From NCBI GenBank assembly GCA_963775685.1, contig CAVZJV010000014.1, positions 1,856,001-1,920,000 of the forward strand: 64,000 nt of DNA. Direction: 5' to 3'. Under the pieces are notes generated by a model, which saw nothing but the letters and a program-made list of their open reading frames with translations, searched no databases and had not been told where the DNA came from. The position numbers were made by a program, and so were the translations under genes. The DNA comes from Candidatus Bathyarchaeota archaeon. Lineage in GTDB: Archaea; Thermoproteota; Bathyarchaeia; Bathyarchaeales; Bathycorpusculaceae. Shown piece by piece: positions 3,498 to 35,051 of this stretch (position 1 is the stretch's first letter; every line of letters begins with the position of its first letter).

Positions 3498-4838
3498 CTA
3501 CTTGAACCCGGGCATACCTTTGCCGCCACCTAGTCCAAAGGGCAGCTTCTTTTTATGCTTAAACATTTTGAGCATCTTACGCATCATAATGTACTGCTTG
3601 AGAAGTTCTTTGACTTCTTTTTCTGTGGTTCCTGAACCGCGCGCGATGCGTTTTGCTCGTGAAGAATTCAAAAGTTTAGGGTTCTCTTTTTCAGCAGGCG
3701 TCATAGATTGGATTATTATACCCCATTTGTCCAGTCGGCCCTCAGCAGTATTGAGCATCTCTTCAGGCACATCAGCTGACATTCCCGGAATCATCTTGAG
3801 AACTTTACCGAAAGGCCCCATCTTTTTAACCGCTTGGAATTGTTCGTACATGTCCGTTAACGTAAAATTGCCGCTCATTATGTCCTTGGCTTTCTTTTGG
3901 GGAACATTTATTTCAGCATCTTTTACTTTTTCCAAAAGCGTTTCTAAGTCGCCCATCCCTAAGAGGCGCCCTACGAACCTTGAGGGAATAAAAGCTTCTA
4001 GATCTTCTATTTTCTCGCCTGTACCAATAAATTTTATGGGTGCACCCGTTGCTGCAACGGCTGACAGAGCCCCTCCGCCGCGTGAGGAACCGTCAAGTTT
4101 TGTTACGATGATTGCTCCTATGGGGGTTGCTTCATGGAAGGTTTTGGCTTGTGCAAGAGCTTGCTGACCGATGGTTCCGTCGATAACCATAATGACTTCG
4201 TCGGGATGAATGTTCTTTTCAAGGTCTTTCATTTCCTTTATTAAATCTTTTTCTTCTTTGTGGCGACCCGCTGTGTCAACAATTATTAAATCTTTATCGC
4301 TGAAAAGTTTTAGACCTTCCTTGACAACCTTTACGGGATCTTTAGCTTTGAGGTCACCATAAAACGGTGTATTTGTTCTGGTCGACAGCTGTTGAAGTTG
4401 GTTATAGGCGCCTGGACGATAAGTATCAGCACAAATCAACCCTACCTTTAAACCCCTTTTCTGAAAATACCTTGCAAGTTTGGCAGCATGAGTAGTCTTT
4501 CCTGAACCCTGAATGCCTACTAGCATAACGATTTTCTTTTTGCCAGGCTCCACTTTTAAGGCAACCTGTTTATCGCCGACAAAGCGGGTTAACTCTTCAT
4601 AAACAACTTTTATTACATGTTCGCGCCTTGAAATGCCTGGAGGCATTTTCTCTTTCAAAGATCGTTCTTCTATGCGTTTGGAGATTTCCAGTACGAGTTG
4701 AACGTTTACATCTGCTTGAAGCAGTGCGCGTTGGACATCGCGAACCAGTTCCTTCACTGCCGCTTCGTCAACTACGCTGGCCTTGAACAGCTTTTTTATG
4801 GCGCCGGTTAGTGAAGAACCTAGTTTATCTAATGCCAT
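3498..4838 (-). CDS. srp54: Signal recognition particle protein SRP54
   Basis: GIQGSGKTT, DTAGR, TKLDG, Met-rich M domain RIARGSG; start at MALDKLG. Confidence 0.97.
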   Translation of the reverse strand: MALDKLGSSLTGAIKKLFKASVVDEAAVKELVRDVQRALLQADVNVQLVLEISKRIEERSLKEKMPPGISRREHVIKVVYEELTRFVGDKQVALKVEPGKKKIVMLVGIQGSGKTTHAAKLARYFQKRGLKVGLICADTYRPGAYNQLQQLSTRTNTPFYGDLKAKDPVKVVKEGLKLFSDKDLIIVDTAGRHKEEKDLIKEMKDLEKNIHPDEVIMVIDGTIGQQALAQAKTFHEATPIGAIIVTKLDGSSRGGGALSAVAATGAPIKFIGTGEKIEDLEAFIPSRFVGRLLGMGDLETLLEKVKDAEINVPQKKAKDIMSGNFTLTDMYEQFQAVKKMGPFGKVLKMIPGMSADVPEEMLNTAEGRLDKWGIIIQSMTPAEKENPKLLNSSRAKRIARGSGTTEKEVKELLKQYIMMRKMLKMFKHKKKLPFGLGGGKGMPGFK

Positions 4839-4930
4839 CAGAGTCTCCAGCCTAAACATTCTCGTATTCTTTTAAATAAAGATTACACAAAATAGGCAAA
4901 TAATAGCCCTAAAATATGAGTTGTTTTCCA

Positions 4931-15149: not shown

Positions 15150-15992
15150 GTGAAATTAACGCCTTCCCTGTTAGAGATAGATTTTTCGGAGACACAAACT
15201 AGAATCTGCCGTTTCATAAAACAATACGTGGAAAACGCTGGAGCAAAAGGAATCGTTCTTGGTCTCTCTGGAGGAATAGACAGCGGAACCATAGCGGCAC
15301 TGTCAAGCCTTGCAATAGGAGGCGAAAACGTCCTGGGGCTTATGTTGCCTGAAAAGGAAAATTTTAACCAAAAAGACATCGACGACGCCAGAGCCGTTGC
15401 AGGCCAATTTCAATTGGAAACCCATGTCTGCGACATGTCAGAAGCACTTAACGGATTATATGGGGCCATTCCTGCTTTTGACAAAGCCAACAAGCTCTGC
15501 AAAGGAAACGTCAAAGCACGAACAAGAATGATTTTTCTCTACTACTACGCCAACAAACAAAACCGAGTCGTCTGCGGCAGCTCCGATAAATCCGAAACGA
15601 TGATGGGCTACTTCACCAAATGGGGAGACGCCGCAGCAGACATCGCTCCAATCATGGATTTATACAAAACGCAAGTCCGCAAACTCGCAATGCATCTTGG
15701 AATCCCAAAGGAGCTCTCCATAAAACCCTCCACTCCAGCGCTTTGGCCAAACCAAATGGCAGAATCTGAGCTTGGAATCAAATACGAAACCTTAGACCTT
15801 ATTCTCTATGGACTCGAACGGTTCATGGAACCTCAGGAGATTGCCAATCAACTGGGCATAAAGATCGTTATGATCGACCAGATAAAGACTCGATGGCTTG
15901 CCAATGAGCATAAGAGAAGAATGCCCCTTGCTCCTAAAATTGGGTATAGAACTGTGGGAAATGATTTTAGGCTTCCAAGACACACCTATTGA
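15150..15992 (+). CDS. nadE: NAD+ synthetase (synthetase domain only)
   Basis: LSGGIDS, GNVKARTRM, GYFTKWGD, LYKTQV. Confidence 0.96.
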   Translation: MKLTPSLLEIDFSETQTRICRFIKQYVENAGAKGIVLGLSGGIDSGTIAALSSLAIGGENVLGLMLPEKENFNQKDIDDARAVAGQFQLETHVCDMSEALNGLYGAIPAFDKANKLCKGNVKARTRMIFLYYYANKQNRVVCGSSDKSETMMGYFTKWGDAAADIAPIMDLYKTQVRKLAMHLGIPKELSIKPSTPALWPNQMAESELGIKYETLDLILYGLERFMEPQEIANQLGIKIVMIDQIKTRWLANEHKRRMPLAPKIGYRTVGNDFRLPRHTY

Positions 15993-16002
15993 GTGGAAAA
16001 GG

Positions 16003-16836
16003 ATGAAGGATAAAATCAAACTTGCTTTGTGCCAAATAAGCAGTAAGCGGGAAGACAAAAACGAGAATCTGCGTAAAATTGAAGGCTTGACGTTAAAAGC
16101 TAAACAGAGGGGGGTAGACTTAGTGATTTTTCCCGAAATGTCACTTACAGGCTACGTGTTGCACGACCAAGTCTACGAGTTAGCAGAAACAATTCCTGGA
16201 CCCACAGTCCAAAAAGTTGAATTGTTAGCAAAGCAAACAGGGATGCACATCATTTTTGGAATGCCTGAACGAAGCGAGAAAACCCATGCAACAGTCTTTA
16301 ACACAGCGGTCTTTGTTGGTCCAAAAGGGCTAATCGGTAAGTACCGAAAGATGTATTTGCCGACTCATAGCGTGTTTGAAGAAAAAAGGTATTTTCGTCC
16401 AGGCTATAAGCCAGCCGCTTTTGAAACGGACTTAGGAAACATAGGTTTAAGCATTTGTTATGATGTTTTCTTTCCTGAAGTGTTTAGACTAACACGTCTT
16501 AAGGGTGCTCAATTAATAATTTGCATTTCTGCTTCTCCAGCTGTGCGAAGGGGGTACTTTGAAATTTTGACATCTGCTCGGGCACTAGAAAATACATCAT
16601 TTTTAGCCTACGTTAACCTTGCTGGTGTCGAAGAAGGCTTGCAATTTTGGGGAGGAAGCCGCCTCGTCTCTCCAACTGGGGATGTTGTAGCTAAGGCAAA
16701 GTACGATGAAGAAGACTTTGTTGTGGCTGAAGTCGATTACAGTGATTTAAAGACTGCTGAAACCTTCATTCCGACCTTAAGAGACCTGCGGCCTGAACTT
16801 TTCGCCAAACTGAAAGAGTATTCAGAGCGTCTGTAA
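16003..16836 (+). CDS. Carbon-nitrogen hydrolase (nitrilase family)
   Basis: Glu-Lys-Cys triad: FPEM, KYRK, ICYD. Confidence 0.92.
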   Translation: MKDKIKLALCQISSKREDKNENLRKIEGLTLKAKQRGVDLVIFPEMSLTGYVLHDQVYELAETIPGPTVQKVELLAKQTGMHIIFGMPERSEKTHATVFNTAVFVGPKGLIGKYRKMYLPTHSVFEEKRYFRPGYKPAAFETDLGNIGLSICYDVFFPEVFRLTRLKGAQLIICISASPAVRRGYFEILTSARALENTSFLAYVNLAGVEEGLQFWGGSRLVSPTGDVVAKAKYDEEDFVVAEVDYSDLKTAETFIPTLRDLRPELFAKLKEYSERL

Positions 16837-16837
16837 C

Positions 16838-16973
16838 AAATCACAACAAACTGCATTGCCATAGGTTGGTATCACAGATGAATCACAACCCTGTGATGCG
16901 AATGTTTAAACGTGAAAATCACATGATTTCTGCGCGATCGGTGACGTCACGGGTTTTTTCATACTAAGTCACA
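16838..16973. repeat. ATCAC/GTGAT motif cluster 1 with GTGACGTCAC palindrome
   Basis: ATCACA/TGTGAT near 16840, 16871, 16882, 16892, 16918; GTGACGTCAC at 16941-16950; GTCACA at 16968. Confidence 0.75.
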
Positions 16974-17334
16974 TGTAAGATAGTCATGCAATAAAGTTCG
17001 CATTGCGAGAAGCACAGAAACTGTGTTTTGTTCGACATGAGTCCGAAAAAAAGGGAATAATTAGGGGAAGGTTCATTTGAAAAAGTGTATTTTTCATGTA
17101 AAGTTTAGCCTTAATTGGTTGATGAATAATCAAGATTTTTGTCGTTTTAATGTTAATCGACCACAAAACAACTCAAAACTGCCGAAAACACTTGTTTTAG
17201 CTTTATTTTACTTTTTAGGCATTATTTAGTCGCTTAATTATGCAAGATATGTGTTTTGGCGCTCGGACAAAAGTTAAAAAGTCGACAATGTCTACAAAAC
17301 TGTATCCATTCAAAGGATAGGGAGAAGCAACGAA

Positions 17335-17814
17335 ATGAAACTAAAAGACAGCGTACAAGCATGGTTAAACGGGGCTTTAAATGACCCAATTGTACAAATA
17401 CTGGCTAAAAACAGCCAATTAACTAAAACTCAGCTTGAAACATTCCTTATAGACGTTTTAGCCGAAAATATAGCGGGAAAACAGCTAAATTACGACAATA
17501 AAGCAGCTTTAAGGTTAACAAAGGCCAAAATAAGCCGCGGAAGTTTTAATAGGACTTTAAAACAGTCCAAAGAAAATGTCATAAAATCCATCTACACAGT
17601 ACTCCTTTTGGGATATTTAGGAGTATTTGAGAGCACAACTCTCGACCCCTATCTCGAAATAGCTAATAAACTGCACGATTATGTGGAGGCACACCAAGAT
17701 GTACCTAGCAAGGAAGAAGAACTAAAAGACCATCTAAAAGTTATAGAAATTATTCGAGAGGAGCTCGAAACAAGCTTAAAACGTCTTTCCAGCCCATCTG
17801 ACGGAACTCTGTGA
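17335..17814 (+). CDS. Uncharacterised origin-proximal protein, possible HTH
   Basis: 159 aa with GGAG SD; LTKTQLE...ISRGSFNRTLKQ resembles an HTH recognition helix. Confidence 0.7.
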   Translation: MKLKDSVQAWLNGALNDPIVQILAKNSQLTKTQLETFLIDVLAENIAGKQLNYDNKAALRLTKAKISRGSFNRTLKQSKENVIKSIYTVLLLGYLGVFESTTLDPYLEIANKLHDYVEAHQDVPSKEEELKDHLKVIEIIREELETSLKRLSSPSDGTL

Positions 17815-18115
17815 CGTCACAAATCACAGATCAATCATCTTTCTTATTTAATTTAAATACCCTTTTAAAAACCCAACAATATACCTAAAATTATGGTTAA
17901 ATCAGCTAAATAGCTTCAAATTGGATTGATTTTAGTAGCAGCAATATAACCTAAAACCCAACAGAACGCATTTGTGATGCGTGATATCATATCGAATGAA
18001 TGTTAATATCACCGCAAACCTTAAAAAGTCCATGGAACAACTGTGATGTGTGATGCAACCAATCAAATCACGGGTAAATCACCGTTAAATCACAATCAAG
18101 GGGTGGCAAATCACG
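17810..18115. repeat. ATCAC/GTGAT motif cluster 2 with helically phased direct repeats
   Basis: TGTGACGTCACA 17810-17821; GTGAT/ATCAC near 17823, 17974, 17981, 18008, 18043, 18050; AAATCAC at 18065, 18076, 18087, 18108. Confidence 0.8.
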
Positions 18116-18895
18116 GTTGACATTGGAGCAATACTCGCAAGCATTTTACTTGTTGTGACAGCGGTAGCTTCTTTTGAGTATTATAATCAGATCCGAAAGG
18201 CGCATAAAGAGTACATTAAGGCGCGAGATTTTATTGAGGATATTGTACTAAGTTTCAATCGTGAACTTAAGCGCAATGCGGATAAGTTTGAATCTATTGC
18301 TTTTAAGGTTGAAGGAACCACGTCGAAGGCAGACGCAAGTCTAAAAATAATCAGTAATGTCGAGAAGCGTATAACACCCTTCGAAGAACAACTTGCGACA
18401 ATTAGTCAATCATATCAAACAATGTCTCAGATAGTCTCTCAAAACCTGACGGAGAACTCTCAAAATAGTACCAACATATTGTCTGGATTAACAGGTTTGG
18501 AAACAAAACTTAGAGACATTGAAGCAACCCAGGAAACTTTGCGAAACAAAATTACCGATTTTGAAGATCAAGTACAAAAGATAACGATTGTCCAACCTCA
18601 GGAAATTAAAACTCAAATGGCCCTACCACCTATTCCAATTAAACGCGACAAAGCATTGGCTGCACTAACAGACACAGAAATAGCAGTATTGGAAATGTTA
18701 TTAAAGGACGGTGCAAAGACGGCGCCTGAAATCAAAGAGATAGTCCATCTAAGCAGAGAGCACACAGCTAGGCTGATGAAAAAGCTATATGAAGAAGGAT
18801 ATCTTGAGCGAGAAGCAGGCAAAATTCCTTTTCAGTACAGTTTAAAGAAGGAAATGAAAACCTTACTTCAGAAAGCAGAAAACCCCTCTGCGTGA
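18110..18895 (+). CDS. Predicted TM anchor + coiled coil + C-terminal winged-helix protein
   Basis: Frame is open upstream of GTG 18155 and adds the hydrophobic ITVDIGAILASILLVVTAVASF; heptad-rich middle; LTDTEIAVLEML...TAPEI...LSREHTARLMKKLYEEGYLER wHTH. Confidence 0.75.
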   Translation: MTVDIGAILASILLVVTAVASFEYYNQIRKAHKEYIKARDFIEDIVLSFNRELKRNADKFESIAFKVEGTTSKADASLKIISNVEKRITPFEEQLATISQSYQTMSQIVSQNLTENSQNSTNILSGLTGLETKLRDIEATQETLRNKITDFEDQVQKITIVQPQEIKTQMALPPIPIKRDKALAALTDTEIAVLEMLLKDGAKTAPEIKEIVHLSREHTARLMKKLYEEGYLEREAGKIPFQYSLKKEMKTLLQKAENPSA

Positions 18896-18943
18896 GAATA
18901 AATTAAATAGTTTTAGAGTAGCCGGTTATTGTGTTATTATTTT

Positions 18944-19375
18944 TTATTTTATGCGTTGCTTTATTGTGGCTTGGGAAATGTTTGGCGCTGACTTATATTT
19001 CAAGTTATTTTGCCCACCGGTTCGAAAAAGCATACCTTTGGCTGCCATTCTAGAAAGATAAGTGGAGACTGTGCTGAGGCAAACTGGTTCCTTGAGTTCT
19101 TGTTCATAAATAGACTGGATATCCTTGGAGGAAAACCAGATTAAGGGAAAATTCTTCTGGATAATTAATTGGACTTTCTCGAAACGTGATAGAGCCTTAT
19201 TAGGCATAACTGTGCTTGTATTCATAATCGGGCTCTCTCCAGGTGCACCTCCAAGCAATTCCACTAGATCCAAGAGGCGAAGAGCTTTATCCCGGGTCAC
19301 TTGACCCTCAAATGCAATGGTATATCGATTACCATCACTATCGAACAGCTCAACGCGCATTTTACGAGCCGGCAT
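18944..19375 (-). CDS. Origin-adjacent winged-helix protein
   Basis: WFSSKDIQSIYEQ...LSTVSTYLSRMAAKGML wHTH; small N-terminal beta domain; divergent from cdc6. Confidence 0.75.
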   Translation of the reverse strand: MPARKMRVELFDSDGNRYTIAFEGQVTRDKALRLLDLVELLGGAPGESPIMNTSTVMPNKALSRFEKVQLIIQKNFPLIWFSSKDIQSIYEQELKEPVCLSTVSTYLSRMAAKGMLFRTGGQNNLKYKSAPNISQATIKQRIK

Positions 19376-19396
19376 CGGGAGTACACCTTAAGGTTG

Positions 19397-19790
19397 CTCA
19401 CATTTACACTTCACACCTTAAAGCTGTTATGGTGAAATGAAGTAACTGAAAAAGGCAATGTAATGCTCATATTTTATAAATCAGACTTTTTTGAAGTGTT
19501 TTCGCTATTACCAGCTTCACAGATAAATGAATAACCAGAAAACTTTGTGTTAAGCCTTGGTTCATGTTTTCCAGTAGAAGTGAAGGGGTGGCTTATTCAC
19601 TTGTGAAAGACAGAAAAATGGTAATTTATAGGAAAATGAGCTCATTAATGCGGCAGAAATATTGATATTTCATATGAATTCACAATTTTGTGAACTTAAA
19701 AAGGCCGGGAATTTGAAAATAAACACTTTTGGTTTGCTTGGAGTAAATTGTTGATAGTTTATGGTTAAGTGAAGCAACTTGTCACTTCTA
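19397..19790. repeat. TTCAC/GTGAA motif cluster in left half of origin region
   Basis: CTTCAC 19409 and 19515; GTGAA 19432 and 19580; palindromes TTCACTTGTGAA 19596 and TTCACAATTTTGTGAA 19679; AAGTGAAG...TCACTT 19767. Confidence 0.6.
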
Positions 19791-20153
19791 ATTCAACGTT
19801 ATGACATGGAAAAGCTTTGTTGAGGGACACCCCTATGTTTCCTCTCGAAGTTTTTGGGACAAAAGAAGTTAGGAAAGCTCGAAAAAATATTTACAGACAG
19901 ATTGTCTAAAATGTTTGATGATAATCATTAATATATAAAAATGCGTTTTATCACTCAGAGTATATTATTATATATATTATAATTAGTAGTTTCCTTATAA
20001 TAAACTATATTCTCCAGTAGAAACTTTGGTGTGTGTCTTCTCTTGGTTTGTTTGACCACTATCGCCTATTTTCTTTGTTTTTTAGGATTGTTGTGGTCTA
20101 AAACTAGTTTTTTGTACTGTATCCTTTATCTGTTCCACAAGAAATAACGGTTG
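19569..20153. other. Probable replication origin (oriC) with ORB elements and AT-rich DUE
   Basis: ORB-like TTCCAGTAGAAGTGAAGGGGT (19569,+), CTTCGAGAGGAAACATAGGGGTGT (19827-19850,-), CTCCAGTAGAAACTTTGGTGT (20012,+), GTTCCACAAGAAATAACGG (20132,+); AT-rich ~19915-20010 between inverted ORBs; directly upstream of cdc6. Confidence 0.85.
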
Positions 20154-20180
20154 TACCTGTCAAGATTGATGTGATGACGA

Positions 20181-21428
20181 ATGGGGAATCCGAGTGTACT
20201 AGATGATGTATTTGACAACTTCGTTAATGGTGCTCGATTGTTTAAAGACCGAGAAGTTTTAAGGCATGATTATCTTCCTGAGAAGTTGCCACATCGTGAA
20301 GACCAAATACGATTATTAGGTTCAACTGTTGCTCCAGTTTTGAGAGATTCAAGGTGCTCTAACATTTTTATTTATGGCAAAACTGGAACCGGAAAGACTG
20401 CAGTAACAAAGTATGTTTTAAGCCATTTGGAGTCCAAAGCAAAAGAGTATGGTGCACAAGTAAAATTTTGCTACATCAACTGCCGCATGACTGGTTCAGA
20501 GTACAGAGTGTTTGCAAGCCTAAGCCAAAGTGTTGGGTTATCCGTCCCTTTTACTGGGTTGTCAGTGGGTGAGGTTTTTGACAGGTTTAGAACGGGGTTA
20601 GATTCCTCAAGGATAATTTTCATAATTGTCTTAGATGAGGTTGATGCCTTGATTAAAGAGCGTGGCGACGCGTTCATGTATGAACTAACAAGAATAAACG
20701 AAACCTTAAGCAAAAGCAAGGTTGCTATAATCGGAATATCCAACGATCTGCGTCTAAAAGAATTCCTAGATCCGCGAGTCTTCAGTTCACTTAGCGAAGA
20801 AGAGCTGGTCTTTAGACCATACGATGCAGGAGAACTCCGAAATATACTTTTAGAAAGGTCAAAATTGTCCTTCCAAGAAGGTGTTTTATCCGATTCAGCC
20901 CTTAGCATTTGCTCGGCTTTGGCTGCAGCTGAACATGGGGATGCTAGGCGTGCTCTAGATTTGTTACGTGTTGCTGGAGAAGTGGCTGAGCGTGCAGGTG
21001 CAAAAATGATTACAGAAGAGCACGTGCGTCAGGCAGAGAAACACATTGAGCATAATCGTGTAGTTGAAGCCCTCAACAACTTAACGTTGCATTCAAAGTT
21101 GGTGCTGCTGAGTGTTTATCATCTAAACAAGTCAAGCCCTACTACCGGAGAAATTTACGATGTATACAATGAATTGTGCGGCGAAATGGGTGCTGGGCTT
21201 TTAACTCAAAGACGTTTAGGCACTTTGGTTAATGAGTTGGATTCAATGGGACTTGTGAACGCAAAAGTTGTAAGCATGGGACGTTATGGTAGAACCAAGA
21301 AAATAAGGCTCGATATTTCCCGAAGTTTGATCAGGGATGTCTTTGGTAGCGACAACCGCTTTAGCCGCTTGATTGAGTACTCACCTCAAGTTTCCCGTAA
21401 AAACTTAAAAAGCCATCCTAATCCGTGA
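20181..21428 (+). CDS. cdc6: Orc1/Cdc6 replication initiator
   Basis: LPHRE, GKTGTGKT, LDEVD, GDARRALDLLR, GRYGRT wing. Confidence 0.97.
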   Translation: MGNPSVLDDVFDNFVNGARLFKDREVLRHDYLPEKLPHREDQIRLLGSTVAPVLRDSRCSNIFIYGKTGTGKTAVTKYVLSHLESKAKEYGAQVKFCYINCRMTGSEYRVFASLSQSVGLSVPFTGLSVGEVFDRFRTGLDSSRIIFIIVLDEVDALIKERGDAFMYELTRINETLSKSKVAIIGISNDLRLKEFLDPRVFSSLSEEELVFRPYDAGELRNILLERSKLSFQEGVLSDSALSICSALAAAEHGDARRALDLLRVAGEVAERAGAKMITEEHVRQAEKHIEHNRVVEALNNLTLHSKLVLLSVYHLNKSSPTTGEIYDVYNELCGEMGAGLLTQRRLGTLVNELDSMGLVNAKVVSMGRYGRTKKIRLDISRSLIRDVFGSDNRFSRLIEYSPQVSRKNLKSHPNP

Positions 21429-32972: not shown

Positions 32973-35051
32973 TTAAAGGGTTTTTGGTTGATAGACGCAC
33001 CAAGGGTCCTCAGTTAAATAATCACTTTTTACCTCGACTGGTACATGCAAATCCCCACAATAATCGATGAAGTCACTTGAAAGTCCATAAGCCCGTGCAC
33101 GGCATCCGCCACATAAGGCGCGGTATTCGCACTCTCTGCATTTGCCCTTAAGGGAGTTGGGGTCACGGAGAGCTTTGAATATGGGTGAATCAAACCAGAT
33201 TTCTTTGAAGCTTTTTTCCCTCACGTTCCCAAGCTTTATTGGCAAATAGGGGCAAGGTGTGACGTCACCGTTGGGGTAGATGCGGCAGTAGTATAAGCCT
33301 GCCAAGCAACCGCGGATCCATTGTCTCATGTCTAAACCCATGCCTTTGGCGATGCGCATAAACTGGGGAGCACATGAGGGTCTTACGTTTAGCTTGTGTT
33401 TTGCAACTTTTGCGAAGGTTTTTGTTATCATGTCTTCGTATTTTTGGGGCGAAATATCTTCTAGTTTGGTGCCACGACCTGTTGGAACAAGGAAGAACAT
33501 GTGAAAATTTTCAACGCCAATTTCCTCCGCTAAACTCATGATGTCGTCGATTTGGTTATAGTTCTGCTGAGTTAGCGTAGTATTCACTTGGACGAGCACG
33601 TTATTTTTCCTTAGTGATTTGCAGGCGTTAACTGCTTTTTCCCATGCCCCCACAACACCTCGGAACTCGTCGTGTTGAGCGGGAATATGAGAGTCTAAGC
33701 TGATTGAAACTGTCGCTATACCCGCTGCCTTAAGTTTAGCCGCTACGATATCGTCGATGAAGCTTCCGTTGCTTCCCAACCCCATCTTCAAACTCTTAGA
33801 TGCGCCATATTGGATAAGTTCATAGATGTCTGGGCGTAGGAGAGGTTCGCCGCCGCTTAGTATAAGCAGAGGTTTGCTAACTTGGCAAATTTGGTCCATT
33901 AGGTTTTTGCCCTCTTGAGTGGACAGTTCATCGGTTAGTTTCTTATCTGTGGCGTTAATGTAGCAGTGGCTGCATTTCATGTTACACTCTCTGGTTACGT
34001 TCCATGACATGACCAGGGGAACAAACGGTTCCGATGTCTTTGCTTCTGGTGAATGTGCAAGTTTTAGGTAGAACTCACAGTTGCCGTGCGTTGCTATAAG
34101 TTTAGGTTGCCACAGCGTGAAGGGGAAGGGCAAAACTGTGTCCAGCATGGCTTTGGCGTGTGCAAAACAGAAGTGAGAACAGAACAGCGCCGAAACCTTG
34201 TCGCTTACGCCGTATTTTTCAGCGGCATACTTGTGGCTTCCATAAATTGGGCAATTTAAAAATTCCATATTTCCATCAAGGGTTTCGTTGCTCATAGTCA
34301 TGTTGATGAAGTGGTCGCTTAGCATGACTGACTGCAGTTTTTCTCGGCGCATACCAACTTTAAGCGTTACATCAAGGGCTATGCTGACCGTCTCTCGACC
34401 GAACTTGTCCTGCACTCGCGCCATCGCTTCCTCCAGTGCTTGAACCCCGCTGGTTTTGGCTAGTTCAGCCGTAACCAACATGCCTTTGATTGTTTCGTAC
34501 TCTTGGATAAGCCGCACCCTAATGATTTGCACTGCCCATGCCTCAAACAGCTTTTCAAACGCCTTACAAGCATTTTGGTCATTGTTGTTTAGCAGGGTTT
34601 CGACTTTGCTGTTTTCTTGTTTCAGCTTGTTAAAAAGAGCTATTTTCTCTTCTGACACTAATCTTTTGCTTGAAGCAATTCCCTCAAAATCCATGTGGGA
34701 AACTGCTTTTTTGGTGAGTTCTTTGGCGTCAGACTCAAAATCGGCGTAAATCTTACATAACTTCGCTGAAACATCAGGCAACTCATTCTTCAACTCTTTA
34801 AGGAGCACTTGGGTTTCCGACTCCATCTTGGTAACCATAGCCATATGGTACAAAAGCGAACCAGCCATACCTGGGTCAGCTTGTTTGCCCCCCATTGCCC
34901 CGGGGAAAATTTGGTTAAACAACCGCTTTGCCAAATCAAAATCTTGGTTCTCGATGGCGGATTGGGCTTCGCTGAGTTTTTGTCGGCGACCAAGTAAGAG
35001 TTGAGCCCATTTATGGCAATGCCTAACATCAAAGTTTGTGACTGTATCCAC
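32973..35051 (-). CDS. Radical SAM/SPASM protein (AhbD/NirJ-like) with ~340-aa N-terminal extension
   Basis: WNVTRECNMKCSHC, SGGEPL, PSCAPQF, GCLAG..YC, KCRECEYRALCGGCRARA, EDPWC. Confidence 0.88.
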   Translation of the reverse strand: MDTVTNFDVRHCHKWAQLLLGRRQKLSEAQSAIENQDFDLAKRLFNQIFPGAMGGKQADPGMAGSLLYHMAMVTKMESETQVLLKELKNELPDVSAKLCKIYADFESDAKELTKKAVSHMDFEGIASSKRLVSEEKIALFNKLKQENSKVETLLNNNDQNACKAFEKLFEAWAVQIIRVRLIQEYETIKGMLVTAELAKTSGVQALEEAMARVQDKFGRETVSIALDVTLKVGMRREKLQSVMLSDHFINMTMSNETLDGNMEFLNCPIYGSHKYAAEKYGVSDKVSALFCSHFCFAHAKAMLDTVLPFPFTLWQPKLIATHGNCEFYLKLAHSPEAKTSEPFVPLVMSWNVTRECNMKCSHCYINATDKKLTDELSTQEGKNLMDQICQVSKPLLILSGGEPLLRPDIYELIQYGASKSLKMGLGSNGSFIDDIVAAKLKAAGIATVSISLDSHIPAQHDEFRGVVGAWEKAVNACKSLRKNNVLVQVNTTLTQQNYNQIDDIMSLAEEIGVENFHMFFLVPTGRGTKLEDISPQKYEDMITKTFAKVAKHKLNVRPSCAPQFMRIAKGMGLDMRQWIRGCLAGLYYCRIYPNGDVTPCPYLPIKLGNVREKSFKEIWFDSPIFKALRDPNSLKGKCRECEYRALCGGCRARAYGLSSDFIDYCGDLHVPVEVKSDYLTEDPWCVYQPKTL

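Follow-up and report, generated by a model that had tools for sequence, protein, structure and literature searches.

Three predicted DNA-binding proteins and their candidate operator arrays beside a putative replication origin in Bathyarchaeia

How archaea without ParA-type systems position and segregate their replication origins, and which proteins other than Orc1/Cdc6 act there (UBP being the only such factor in the literature on which we drew), are questions raised by a short region of a 64,000-nucleotide stretch of a Candidatus Bathyarchaeota archaeon (contig CAVZJV010000014.1, positions 1,856,001 to 1,920,000). We call this whole stretch the window and number it from its first letter; it is part of a 2.47-Mb contig in a 3.06-Mb assembly, over which all genome-wide counts were made. 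In it three uncharacterised genes, here g1, g2 and g3, stand immediately left of a cdc6/orc1 initiator gene and of a spacer with elements resembling origin recognition boxes (ORBs), as an earlier note on this DNA had claimed and as the coordinates, the ORBs and the Cdc6 domains confirm. That note took the genes and the short repeats around them for one cassette, a candidate DNA-to-membrane tether acting at oriC. Does the locus encode one such machine, or several proteins with separate tasks?

We favour, with some reserve, the second answer: g1, g2 and g3 would be three separable, Bathyarchaeia-specific DNA-binding proteins with private operator sets, each probably autoregulating because each would sit on its own promoter, and not one machine. 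The reading is carried by the way in which the genes come apart between lineages and by the motifs that accompany each of them. This co-occurrence of motifs and proteins, together with the likely start codon of g2, is what we consider new here, both as derived from sequence comparison. The genes run in the order g1, g2, g3 between a hydrolase gene and the ORB-bearing spacer before cdc6:

15898-16836, carbon-nitrogen hydrolase gene, left boundary of the three-gene region
17335-17814, plus strand, g1, 159 residues, no Pfam match
18113-18895, plus strand, g2, predicted single-pass membrane protein of 260 residues
18944-19375, minus strand, g3, 143 residues
20181-21428, plus strand, cdc6/orc1 initiator gene (Pfam Cdc6_lid 88 bits, Cdc6_C 88 bits)

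Separation of the genes and of their motifs

At the level of the class, one identical set of 151 Bathyarchaeia genomes was searched for g1, g2, g3 and cdc6; the assemblies are incomplete, related genomes in the draw are not independent of each other, and 'not found' is meant literally. A match at E < 1e-100 was taken as a cdc6 ortholog, and g2 was counted as present at E <= 1e-8. In this draw g1 occurs in 120/151 genomes (87 of the 95 of high quality), g2 in 101/151, g3 in 92/151 (two of these matches are weak) and any cdc6 in 146/151. Distances tallied by hand from the g1 and cdc6 search rows place g1 and a cdc6 ortholog on one contig in 79 genomes, 0.45-9 kb apart in 78 of these and 16.7 kb apart in one; the two are on separate contigs in 11 genomes, and about 30 g1-bearing genomes have no ortholog of this cdc6. 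Closer to the window the arrangement is nearly uniform. All 20 loci fetched at the order level have g1 and g2, 19 have g3 and 17 have cdc6, and those without g3 or cdc6 stop at or near a contig end. Within the genus all four genes are present in 77 of 80 loci; the housekeeping neighbours are equally syntenic, so that synteny in the genus alone says little. A locus search with a narrower g1 alignment, which reported roughly 530 loci, returned genus members only. In one genus locus (among L033-L112) an inversion relative to g1-g2 affects the g3-cdc6-PolD-PhoU block and breaks the order between g2 and g3.

Ten of the exceptions were fetched as loci. Six, from three families (f24, f21 and f33), read GGGPS-Spt4-(NadE)-g1-g2-PolD and have neither g3 nor origin nor cdc6; one has g1 only, and three are rearranged yet linked, e.g. 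in the order g3-g2-g1-cdc6. In seven families that all have cdc6 (f14, f20, f22, f23, f25, f26 and f27) g2 was not found in any of 31 genomes; these families keep g1, or in two of them mainly g3, with cdc6. As for g3, it was not found in f30 and in part of f17, where cdc6 and mostly ORB-like elements remain, and throughout the 151 genomes it was seen only together with a cdc6 ortholog. In f24 a g3 fragment appears in 1 of 27 genomes, which is the sole f24 genome with a cdc6 ortholog and has it at the same contig end. Origin linkage, which the earlier note had named as a check, is thus borne out by the 78 of 79 same-contig genomes with g1 within 10 kb of the cdc6 ortholog and contradicted by the three families in which g1 and g2 persist without the origin. 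The idea of one cassette or system was not upheld, since g1-g2 occur without g3 and cdc6, whole families lack g2, and some lineages with cdc6 lack g3.

The motifs concerned are the following (cluster letters are ours; BRE is the transcription factor B recognition element):

16838-16975, cluster A of RTCAC/GTGAY sites, some 400 bp before g1, ranking second in the genome for ATCAC density
16872-16899, ATCACA-N5-ATCACA-N5-TGTGAT, in cluster A
16917, AAATCACATGATT, in cluster A
16940-16952, GGTGACGTCACG, in cluster A
17270-17307, plus strand, predicted TATA-like g1 promoter AAAGTTAAAAAG, then the near-palindrome GTCTACAAAACTGTATCC where transcription is predicted to start
17811-17829, RTCAC cluster B, GTGACGTCACAAATCACAG, overlapping the g1 stop codon
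17971-18115, RTCAC cluster C, covering promoter and leader of g2, ranking first in the genome for ATCAC density
17971-17990, TTTGTGATGCGTGATATCAT, in cluster C
18008-18028, ATCACC beside the BRE/TATA, in cluster C
18041-18059, CTGTGATGTGTGATGCAAC, at the predicted g2 transcription start, in cluster C
18066, 18077, 18088 and 18109, AATCAC units with 11-bp phasing, in cluster C
19376-19700, TTCAC(A)/(T)GTGAA cluster, spanning the g3 promoter and surrounding ORB1, ranking first in the genome for TTCAC density
19679-19694, palindrome TTCACAATTTTGTGAA, in the TTCAC cluster, 1 occurrence in the genome

RTCAC arrays go with g2. They lie beside it in 79/79 genus loci and are retained in the six loci without cdc6 and g3, where the best 200-bp windows have 6-10 sites and 0.5-0.9 would be expected; there GTGATATCAC-N5-ATCAC, the equivalent of cluster B in distant families, stands at the g1 stop and an array precedes g2, while an ORB-like element within about 20 kb is absent from five of the six and single in the sixth. 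No RTCAC array was found in any of 12 loci from f14, f23, f26 and f27, which have g1, g3 and cdc6 and no g2: their best 200-bp window has 2-4 sites, with 0-2 sites in the 600 bp upstream of g1 and 0-3 downstream. A palindrome, GATACA-N4-5-TGTATC, precedes g1 in every locus printed, including all 12 without g2. TTCAC sites accompany g3. Five of five f17 loci with g3 have 6-7 TTCAC/GTGAA sites per g3-cdc6 spacer (10.8-15.3 per kb), one GTGAA site lying 15-20 bp beyond the G-string of the first ORB; eight cdc6-bearing loci without g3 (f17, f30) have 0-2 (0-5.2 per kb), and 7 of these 8 show ORB-like elements by pattern. The simplest reading would assign one motif to each protein: the palindrome to g1, GTGAY/RTCAC to g2 and TTCAC(A) to g3.

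Both repeat families are exceptional within the genome. The earlier note had called the region dense in ATCAC and TTCAC and named enrichment over the genome as a check; the enrichment proved strong and specific. ATCAC averages 0.39 per 300 bp (both strands), and the two densest 300-bp windows start at 17823 (10 hits) and 16742 (6), the next best having 5. TTCAC averages 0.6 per 300 bp, and its densest window starts at 19410 (8 hits), followed by two with 6. Over the entire window AATCAC is not enriched (44 copies versus 36.7 +/- 5.6, a count reached by 13 of 100 shuffles); 8 of the 44 fall in 16839-18114, all on the plus strand. Composite RTCAC sites are confined to 16838-18115, where about 20 half-sites lie within 1.3 kb, and the triple 11-bp direct repeat occurs once in the genome. 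A genome-wide search for composite RTCAC, TTCACA and g1-type sites gave none above chance outside the locus, single half-sites being beyond what such a search can judge. GTGACGTCAC has 4 genome copies, 2 of which flank g1; another copy is at window position 33259.

In alignments of ten genus sequences invariant blocks are separated by free-running sequence. The cluster A blocks are invariant across all ten, as is GTGACGTCACAAATCACAG (10/10), and TTGTGATGYGTGATRTCAT forms an invariant block upstream of the g2 promoter; RTCACCG abuts the conserved BRE/TATA AAACCTTAAAAAG, and CTGTGATGTGTGATGCAAC at the predicted transcription start is likewise a conserved block. The RRRTCACR units of the g2 leader number 2 to 5, depending on the species. 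Against a background of 2.24 RTCAC/GTGAY sites per kb, the medians in 79 genus loci are 9 sites per 190 bp, 3 per 40 bp and 8 per 158 bp for clusters A, B and C, and sites in the g2 leader are spaced by 11 bp in 104 cases, by 10 bp in 25 and by 16 bp in 33. TTCAC sites are conserved in the genus too (median 8 per 330 bp in 76 loci versus a background of 2.0 per kb). The 500 bp that separate cluster A from the g1 promoter contain a further conserved block, at 17078-17107, with the approximate genus consensus TTTGCAAAAGTGCATTTTTCGTGTAAAGTT; it has no Rfam match, and the short open reading frames (ORFs) there are not conserved.

The g1 family is Bathyarchaeia-wide, with 315 clusters at 50% identity. 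Its invariant stretch K-x-SRG-(A/S)-FNRTL-x-Q looks like a helix-turn-helix (HTH), in agreement with the HTH-like character that had been ascribed to it. The AF2 model is all-helical and poor (predicted local distance difference test, pLDDT, 54.7). No relative was found in Pfam, NCBIfam, PHROGs or a PDB profile search, ten distant relatives included; a weak Atlas lead (score 0.78) connects g1 with a Hadarchaeota cluster in which 14% of the members carry Sigma70_r4. The promoter and palindrome block is conserved in the genus, where the near-palindrome reads GTATACA-N4-TGTATCC (GTCTACAAAACTGTATCC in the window). It lies at the predicted transcription start and is presumed to be the g1 operator, to which this small helical HTH-like protein would bind.

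The predicted membrane protein g2 and its probable start codon

The layout that had been proposed for g2, a hydrophobic N-terminal helix, a heptad-rich middle and a C-terminal winged helix, is well supported by the sequence. Kyte-Doolittle hydropathy over 19 residues has its maximum, 2.25, at residues 1-19 (next best elsewhere 0.92), and a basic juxtamembrane stretch follows. In residues 25-165, about 140 in all, the hydrophobic 3.5-residue periodicity was reached by 0/2000 shuffles. The C-terminus passes the Pfam cut-offs of TrmB (29.6 bits versus 25.6) and MarR (26.9 versus 24.6) at residues 171-229 of the 246-residue form; NCBIfam matches to Lrs14 and Sta1 are far under the cut-off (27 bits versus 90). 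Among 27 aligned homologs from across the class, 27-70% identical, the hydrophobic N-terminus is retained in 27/27, as had been asked of a membrane protein, the middle part varies in sequence and length, and the recognition helix (S/T)REHTARxxKKLY is invariant or nearly so. One genus homolog (L071:8817-9731) carries in the juxtamembrane helix an insertion of about 28 residues made up of repeats rich in Q, E and Y, and the g2 frames of L083 and L111 are similarly long, as judged from frame length without alignment.

With a DNA-binding domain and a membrane helix in one chain, g2 is by prediction a transmembrane transcription regulator. A survey (PMC10269533) reports such regulators in most archaeal genomes, about four per genome, about 57% of them having a DNA-binding domain without another recognisable domain and 56% being single-pass; regulators with a DNA-binding domain only are common in archaea. 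ToxR, CadC and Sulfolobus ArnR are of this kind, and g2 is like the class in having a DNA-binding domain, one membrane helix and no other recognisable domain; it differs in that its anchor is extreme N-terminal, with about 3 residues predicted outside and so no outside sensor, that its winged helix is C-terminal behind a helix of about 140 residues, and that the sole dense target found for it is its own neighbourhood beside the origin. The winged helix is common to g2 and the TrmB, MarR and Lrs14 families and to g3 and BlaI/MecI, whereas the sugar-binding or dimerisation domains of those families are absent. No description of g1, g2 or g3 was found in the literature searched, supplements aside, in keeping with the earlier impression that this is not a described archaeal system; the tables of the survey might list g2 homologs.

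Where g2 begins is less obvious. Its frame is open from 18089, after a stop at 18086-18088, and the sole ATG, GTG or TTG is a GTG at 18155, a start that would halve the membrane helix. The frame back to 18110 is conserved as coding. The evidence on the start comes from 69 genus loci whose alignment covers the g2 N-terminus. There the second codon of the frame from 18110 is ACG in 63, ATG in 5 and GCG in 1, and the first codon is ATC in 57, AGC in 5, ACC in 2, ATT in 2 and GAC, AGT and GTC in 1 each. Six more divergent loci have ATG, GTG or TTG at the same second position, and in other families the frame opens with ATG, GTG or TTG just before the hydrophobic segment, 1-2 codons from the ACG position in the cases read. 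The 24 codons after ACG show column entropies of 0.90, 0.50 and 1.30 by codon position, and all 62 distinct sequences keep this frame open, with stops interrupting the other two frames in 62 and 58 of them. A Shine-Dalgarno-like GGAGG or GGTG lies 6-9 nt upstream. We conclude that g2 is translated from a non-canonical start codon, most likely ACG at 18113 and less likely its neighbour, ATC at 18110. ACG is, to our knowledge, not among the usual prokaryotic start codons. It is part of the last ATCAC site, and loci with ATG there read ATCAT. That an archaeal gene probably has ACG (or ATC) as a conserved initiation codon has a practical side: gene callers miss such a start, with the result that the membrane anchor of g2 is cut off.

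On this picture only a very short N-terminal piece of g2 would lie outside the cell, followed by one membrane helix, a long dimerising helix and a cytoplasmic winged helix; the protein would bind some 20 GTGAY/RTCAC half-sites in three clusters that flank g1 and cover the g2 promoter, leader and start codon. It would then repress itself and probably influence g1. Through the long helix its dimers would occupy phased half-sites at the BRE/TATA, the transcription start and the leader, positions that fit repression by g2; two further clusters, also bound by g2, would bracket g1 about 870 bp apart, which invites looping. Since the protein would be fixed in the membrane, the occupied arrays would be held there as well. 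The near-cognate ACG start inside the last operator site would keep g2 expression low.

g3 and the predicted origin

The region left of cdc6 can be predicted to be a replication origin from the initiator gene and the ORB anatomy; the 2.47-Mb contig has too faint a GC skew for this to help in placing one. As expected of an archaeal oriC, cdc6 adjoins ORB-like elements that flank an A+T-rich stretch:

19567-19591, plus strand, ORB-like element 1, read from the sequence
19828-19850, minus strand, ORB-like element, read from the sequence
19925-20005, A+T-rich stretch amid the ORB-like elements
20010-20033, plus strand, ORB-like element, read from the sequence
20132-20151, mini-ORB, read from the sequence
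19567-20151, oriC core, conserved in 10 genus sequences

The full ORB pattern has only 2 occurrences in the whole genome, the sole other one lying outside the window (G000:C14:1447295, minus strand). A second, divergent cdc6 match also exists in the genome and, with that distant pattern, may mark a second origin. Our search of the literature for Bathyarchaeota replication origins or Cdc6 gave unrelated work only.

It is g3, rather than g2, that appears tied to this origin. The RTCAC arrays lie 1.5-2.7 kb from the ORBs, outside the origin and over the promoter and 5' leader of g2 itself, and the TTCAC sites among the ORBs track g3; the proposal of action at oriC through the arrays did not hold up in this respect. 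The promoter and 5' leader of a protein's own gene are the usual place for autoregulation. We regard g3 as the origin-linked member because it always abuts the ORBs, is lost together with them and has sites that interleave with theirs. It would bind TTCAC(A) sites over its own promoter and around ORB1 and be the one protein of the three functionally tied to the cdc6-linked origin.

In its model (pLDDT 69.9) g3 opens with a beta-beta-alpha unit (3-41) and continues through a disordered linker to a winged helix (64-129), which is in line with the winged-helix label that it had been given. By Foldseek the winged helix is nearest to MecI/BlaI (E 1e-3 to 1e-2), with the DNA-binding domains of RosR and Fur also among the matches, all marginal. 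The Penicillinase_R match stays below threshold (17.9 bits versus 22.6), and the likeness in fold to BlaI/MecI is confined to the winged helix. A PDB profile search gave weak winged-helix matches only and no UBP chain, and PHROGs had no match for g3.

UBP and its ucm sites at Sulfolobales origins offer the nearest functional comparison (PMC12141716): there, too, a small non-initiator protein has its sites between ORBs. UBP, a beta-rich saddle of 111 residues, binds hundreds of sites across its genome, and the sections on which we draw describe no origin linkage of its gene. By contrast, g3 has a modelled beta-beta-alpha unit and winged helix rather than the UBP fold, its composite site has no second copy in the genome, and the gene lies directly beside the origin.

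In relatives the interval from g3 to g2 holds two ORFs oriented like g3, one of 339 residues without a Pfam match and one HerA-like (DUF87, 33.7 bits); g3 would in these genomes also head a NurA-like/HerA-like operon. Of 76 genus loci 9 have the pair, which also occurs in several other families (example L018:5479-8014). In the window the gap between g2 and g3 is 48 bp (18895-18944), and the HerA-like ORF was not found anywhere in this genome with the relative's ORF as query. The f17 genera without g3 (L126 at about 2230-2600; L128, L129, L130) have what reads as another small frame with an HTH-like stretch in the spacer from the ORBs to cdc6, on the cdc6 strand, which could be a non-orthologous replacement of g3 at the origin.

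Regulators, tether or something else

Several points weigh against three separate autoregulators. The co-occurrence counts are phylogenetically dependent, the 12 loci without g2 representing four families and the g3 contrast two; part of the TTCAC sites lie in the promoter of g3 and would be lost with the gene anyway; promoters and transcription starts were read from the DNA letters alone; and the models of g1 and of the g3 N-terminus are weak. A regulator whose sole dense target is its own neighbourhood has, moreover, no obvious output, which favours a structural role. A predicted complex of g2 (residues 24-259) with g1 scored 0.00 in two runs and counts neither way.

The structural alternative that survives best is a DNA-to-membrane tether near the origin, narrowed to g2, in which dimers on about 20 RTCAC sites 1.5-3 kb from oriC would position or segregate the origin and autoregulation would be secondary. 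We think it unlikely, though it draws on several observations: the integral membrane helix in all 27 homologs, the densest arrays of the genome with composite sites nowhere else, so that binding at one locus looks like a purpose, and an 11-bp phasing that places the sites on one face of the helix. The linkage of g1 to the cdc6 ortholog within 10 kb also includes rearranged orders such as g3-g2-g1-cdc6. A DNA-to-membrane link by g2 is possible on its predicted layout, and with this locus as the sole dense target such a tether may possibly be its purpose; to this extent the earlier interpretation is partly supported. A purpose specific to the origin is disfavoured because g1-g2 outlive the neighbouring origin, as in the six loci of three families with arrays and no g3 or cdc6 beside them (five of the six without an ORB-like element within about 20 kb), and because the origin outlives g2, as in the seven families that keep cdc6.

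Bacteria provide a precedent in RicO of Staphylococcus aureus, a site-specific, membrane-bound origin anchor according to a preprint (bioRxiv 10.64898/2026.03.06.710092). In the descriptions at hand RicO and RocS of Streptococcus pneumoniae resemble g2 in combining a specific DNA-binding domain, a coiled coil and a membrane element, in having target sites near the origin and in being proposed to bridge origin DNA to the membrane. Their DNA-binding domain is, however, N-terminal and their membrane element a C-terminal amphipathic helix, the reverse of g2 with its integral N-terminal helix. The nine ricS sites are spread over about 700 kb in that account of RicO, unlike the 1.3 kb round the g2 promoter in which the half-sites here are clustered, and g2 persists without a neighbouring origin in some families. 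The comparison with the RocS domain set that the earlier note had drawn can therefore be kept for the parts and not for their order or anchor; it is an analogy, and no sequence relationship is claimed.

Partition systems of the ParABS or SegAB kind encode a Walker-type ParA/SegA ATPase together with the DNA-binding adaptor. The window has no ParA- or SegA-type ATPase, as had been noted: its sole weak ParA/CbiA-type match is the SRP54 gene (3498-4859, minus strand), and ParA/MinD-type matches (PF13614, PF01656) lie elsewhere in the genome, so that no SegA- or ParA-with-adaptor system is recognisable at the locus. Clustered repeats, which in partition systems are bound by the adaptor, exist here and track g2, a candidate binder. 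The omega protein (ParB of pSM19035; PMC9499535) similarly has arrays of short direct and inverted repeats overlapping promoters and unites repressor and DNA-handling adaptor in one protein; its heptad WATCACW contains ATCAC by coincidence. As described there, omega is a ribbon-helix-helix protein with a ParA ATPase and contiguous heptads, whereas the locus has a winged helix, mostly 11-bp spacing and no ParA nearby.

Improbable in our view is a two-part system that organises the origin, in which g2 would, without ParA, fasten its array, some 20 phased sites 1.5-3 kb away from oriC, to the membrane, and g3 among the ORBs would modulate initiator loading or helicase release as UBP does. The ACG start would then hold g2 at few copies per cell, enough for a single tether, and g2 would be an archaeal functional counterpart of RicO and RocS.

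Separable regulators remain our preferred reading, and the remaining rivals concern what the arrays and genes are. That g1, alone or with g2, binds the RTCAC arrays is very unlikely: two of the three clusters flank g1, and g1 and g2 are neighbours in almost all genomes that hold both, yet the arrays are missing from every g1-bearing locus examined without g2, where a different palindrome stays before g1. We give hardly any credence to the leader repeats acting as RNA, with a fold of the 5' leader controlling translation from the weak g2 start. The repeats do occupy the stretch from the predicted transcription start to the start codon, which the last of them contains, and GUGAU and AUCAC are mutually complementary and, we presume, resemble Shine-Dalgarno and anti-Shine-Dalgarno sequences; the computed fold of the leader, however, is no better than that of shuffled sequence (z = -0.31; equalled by 73 of 200 shuffles), the number of repeats varies among species, the same motif is also found ahead of the promoter, at the stop codon of g1 and 400 bp before that gene, and Rfam has no match at E <= 1 across 16500-20300. 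That the genes form a mobile, viral or defence island inserted next to the origin can practically be dismissed, for the fall in G+C to 0.35-0.38 across 17-20 kb of the window is explained by long intergenic and origin DNA, and the genes are single-copy, class-wide and in fixed synteny with housekeeping genes, with no PHROG matches for g1 or g3.

Whichever role prevails, the region holds three small proteins conserved across the class, with predicted sites defined sharply enough to be ordered as oligonucleotides, and lineages without g2, without g3 or without the origin serve as natural knock-outs. As the Bathyarchaeia, though abundant, are for the most part uncultured, testable predictions derived from sequence are the main route to their cell biology.

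At the left boundary of the region, in 15150-16836, two ORFs overlap by about 95 bp as listed, the hydrolase and an ORF that we take, from our own reading of the sequence, to be NadE-like (NAD synthetase), the hydrolase being the one that was profile-tested there. Relatives align to the hydrolase only from residue 31-36 or so, and its true start is probably later.

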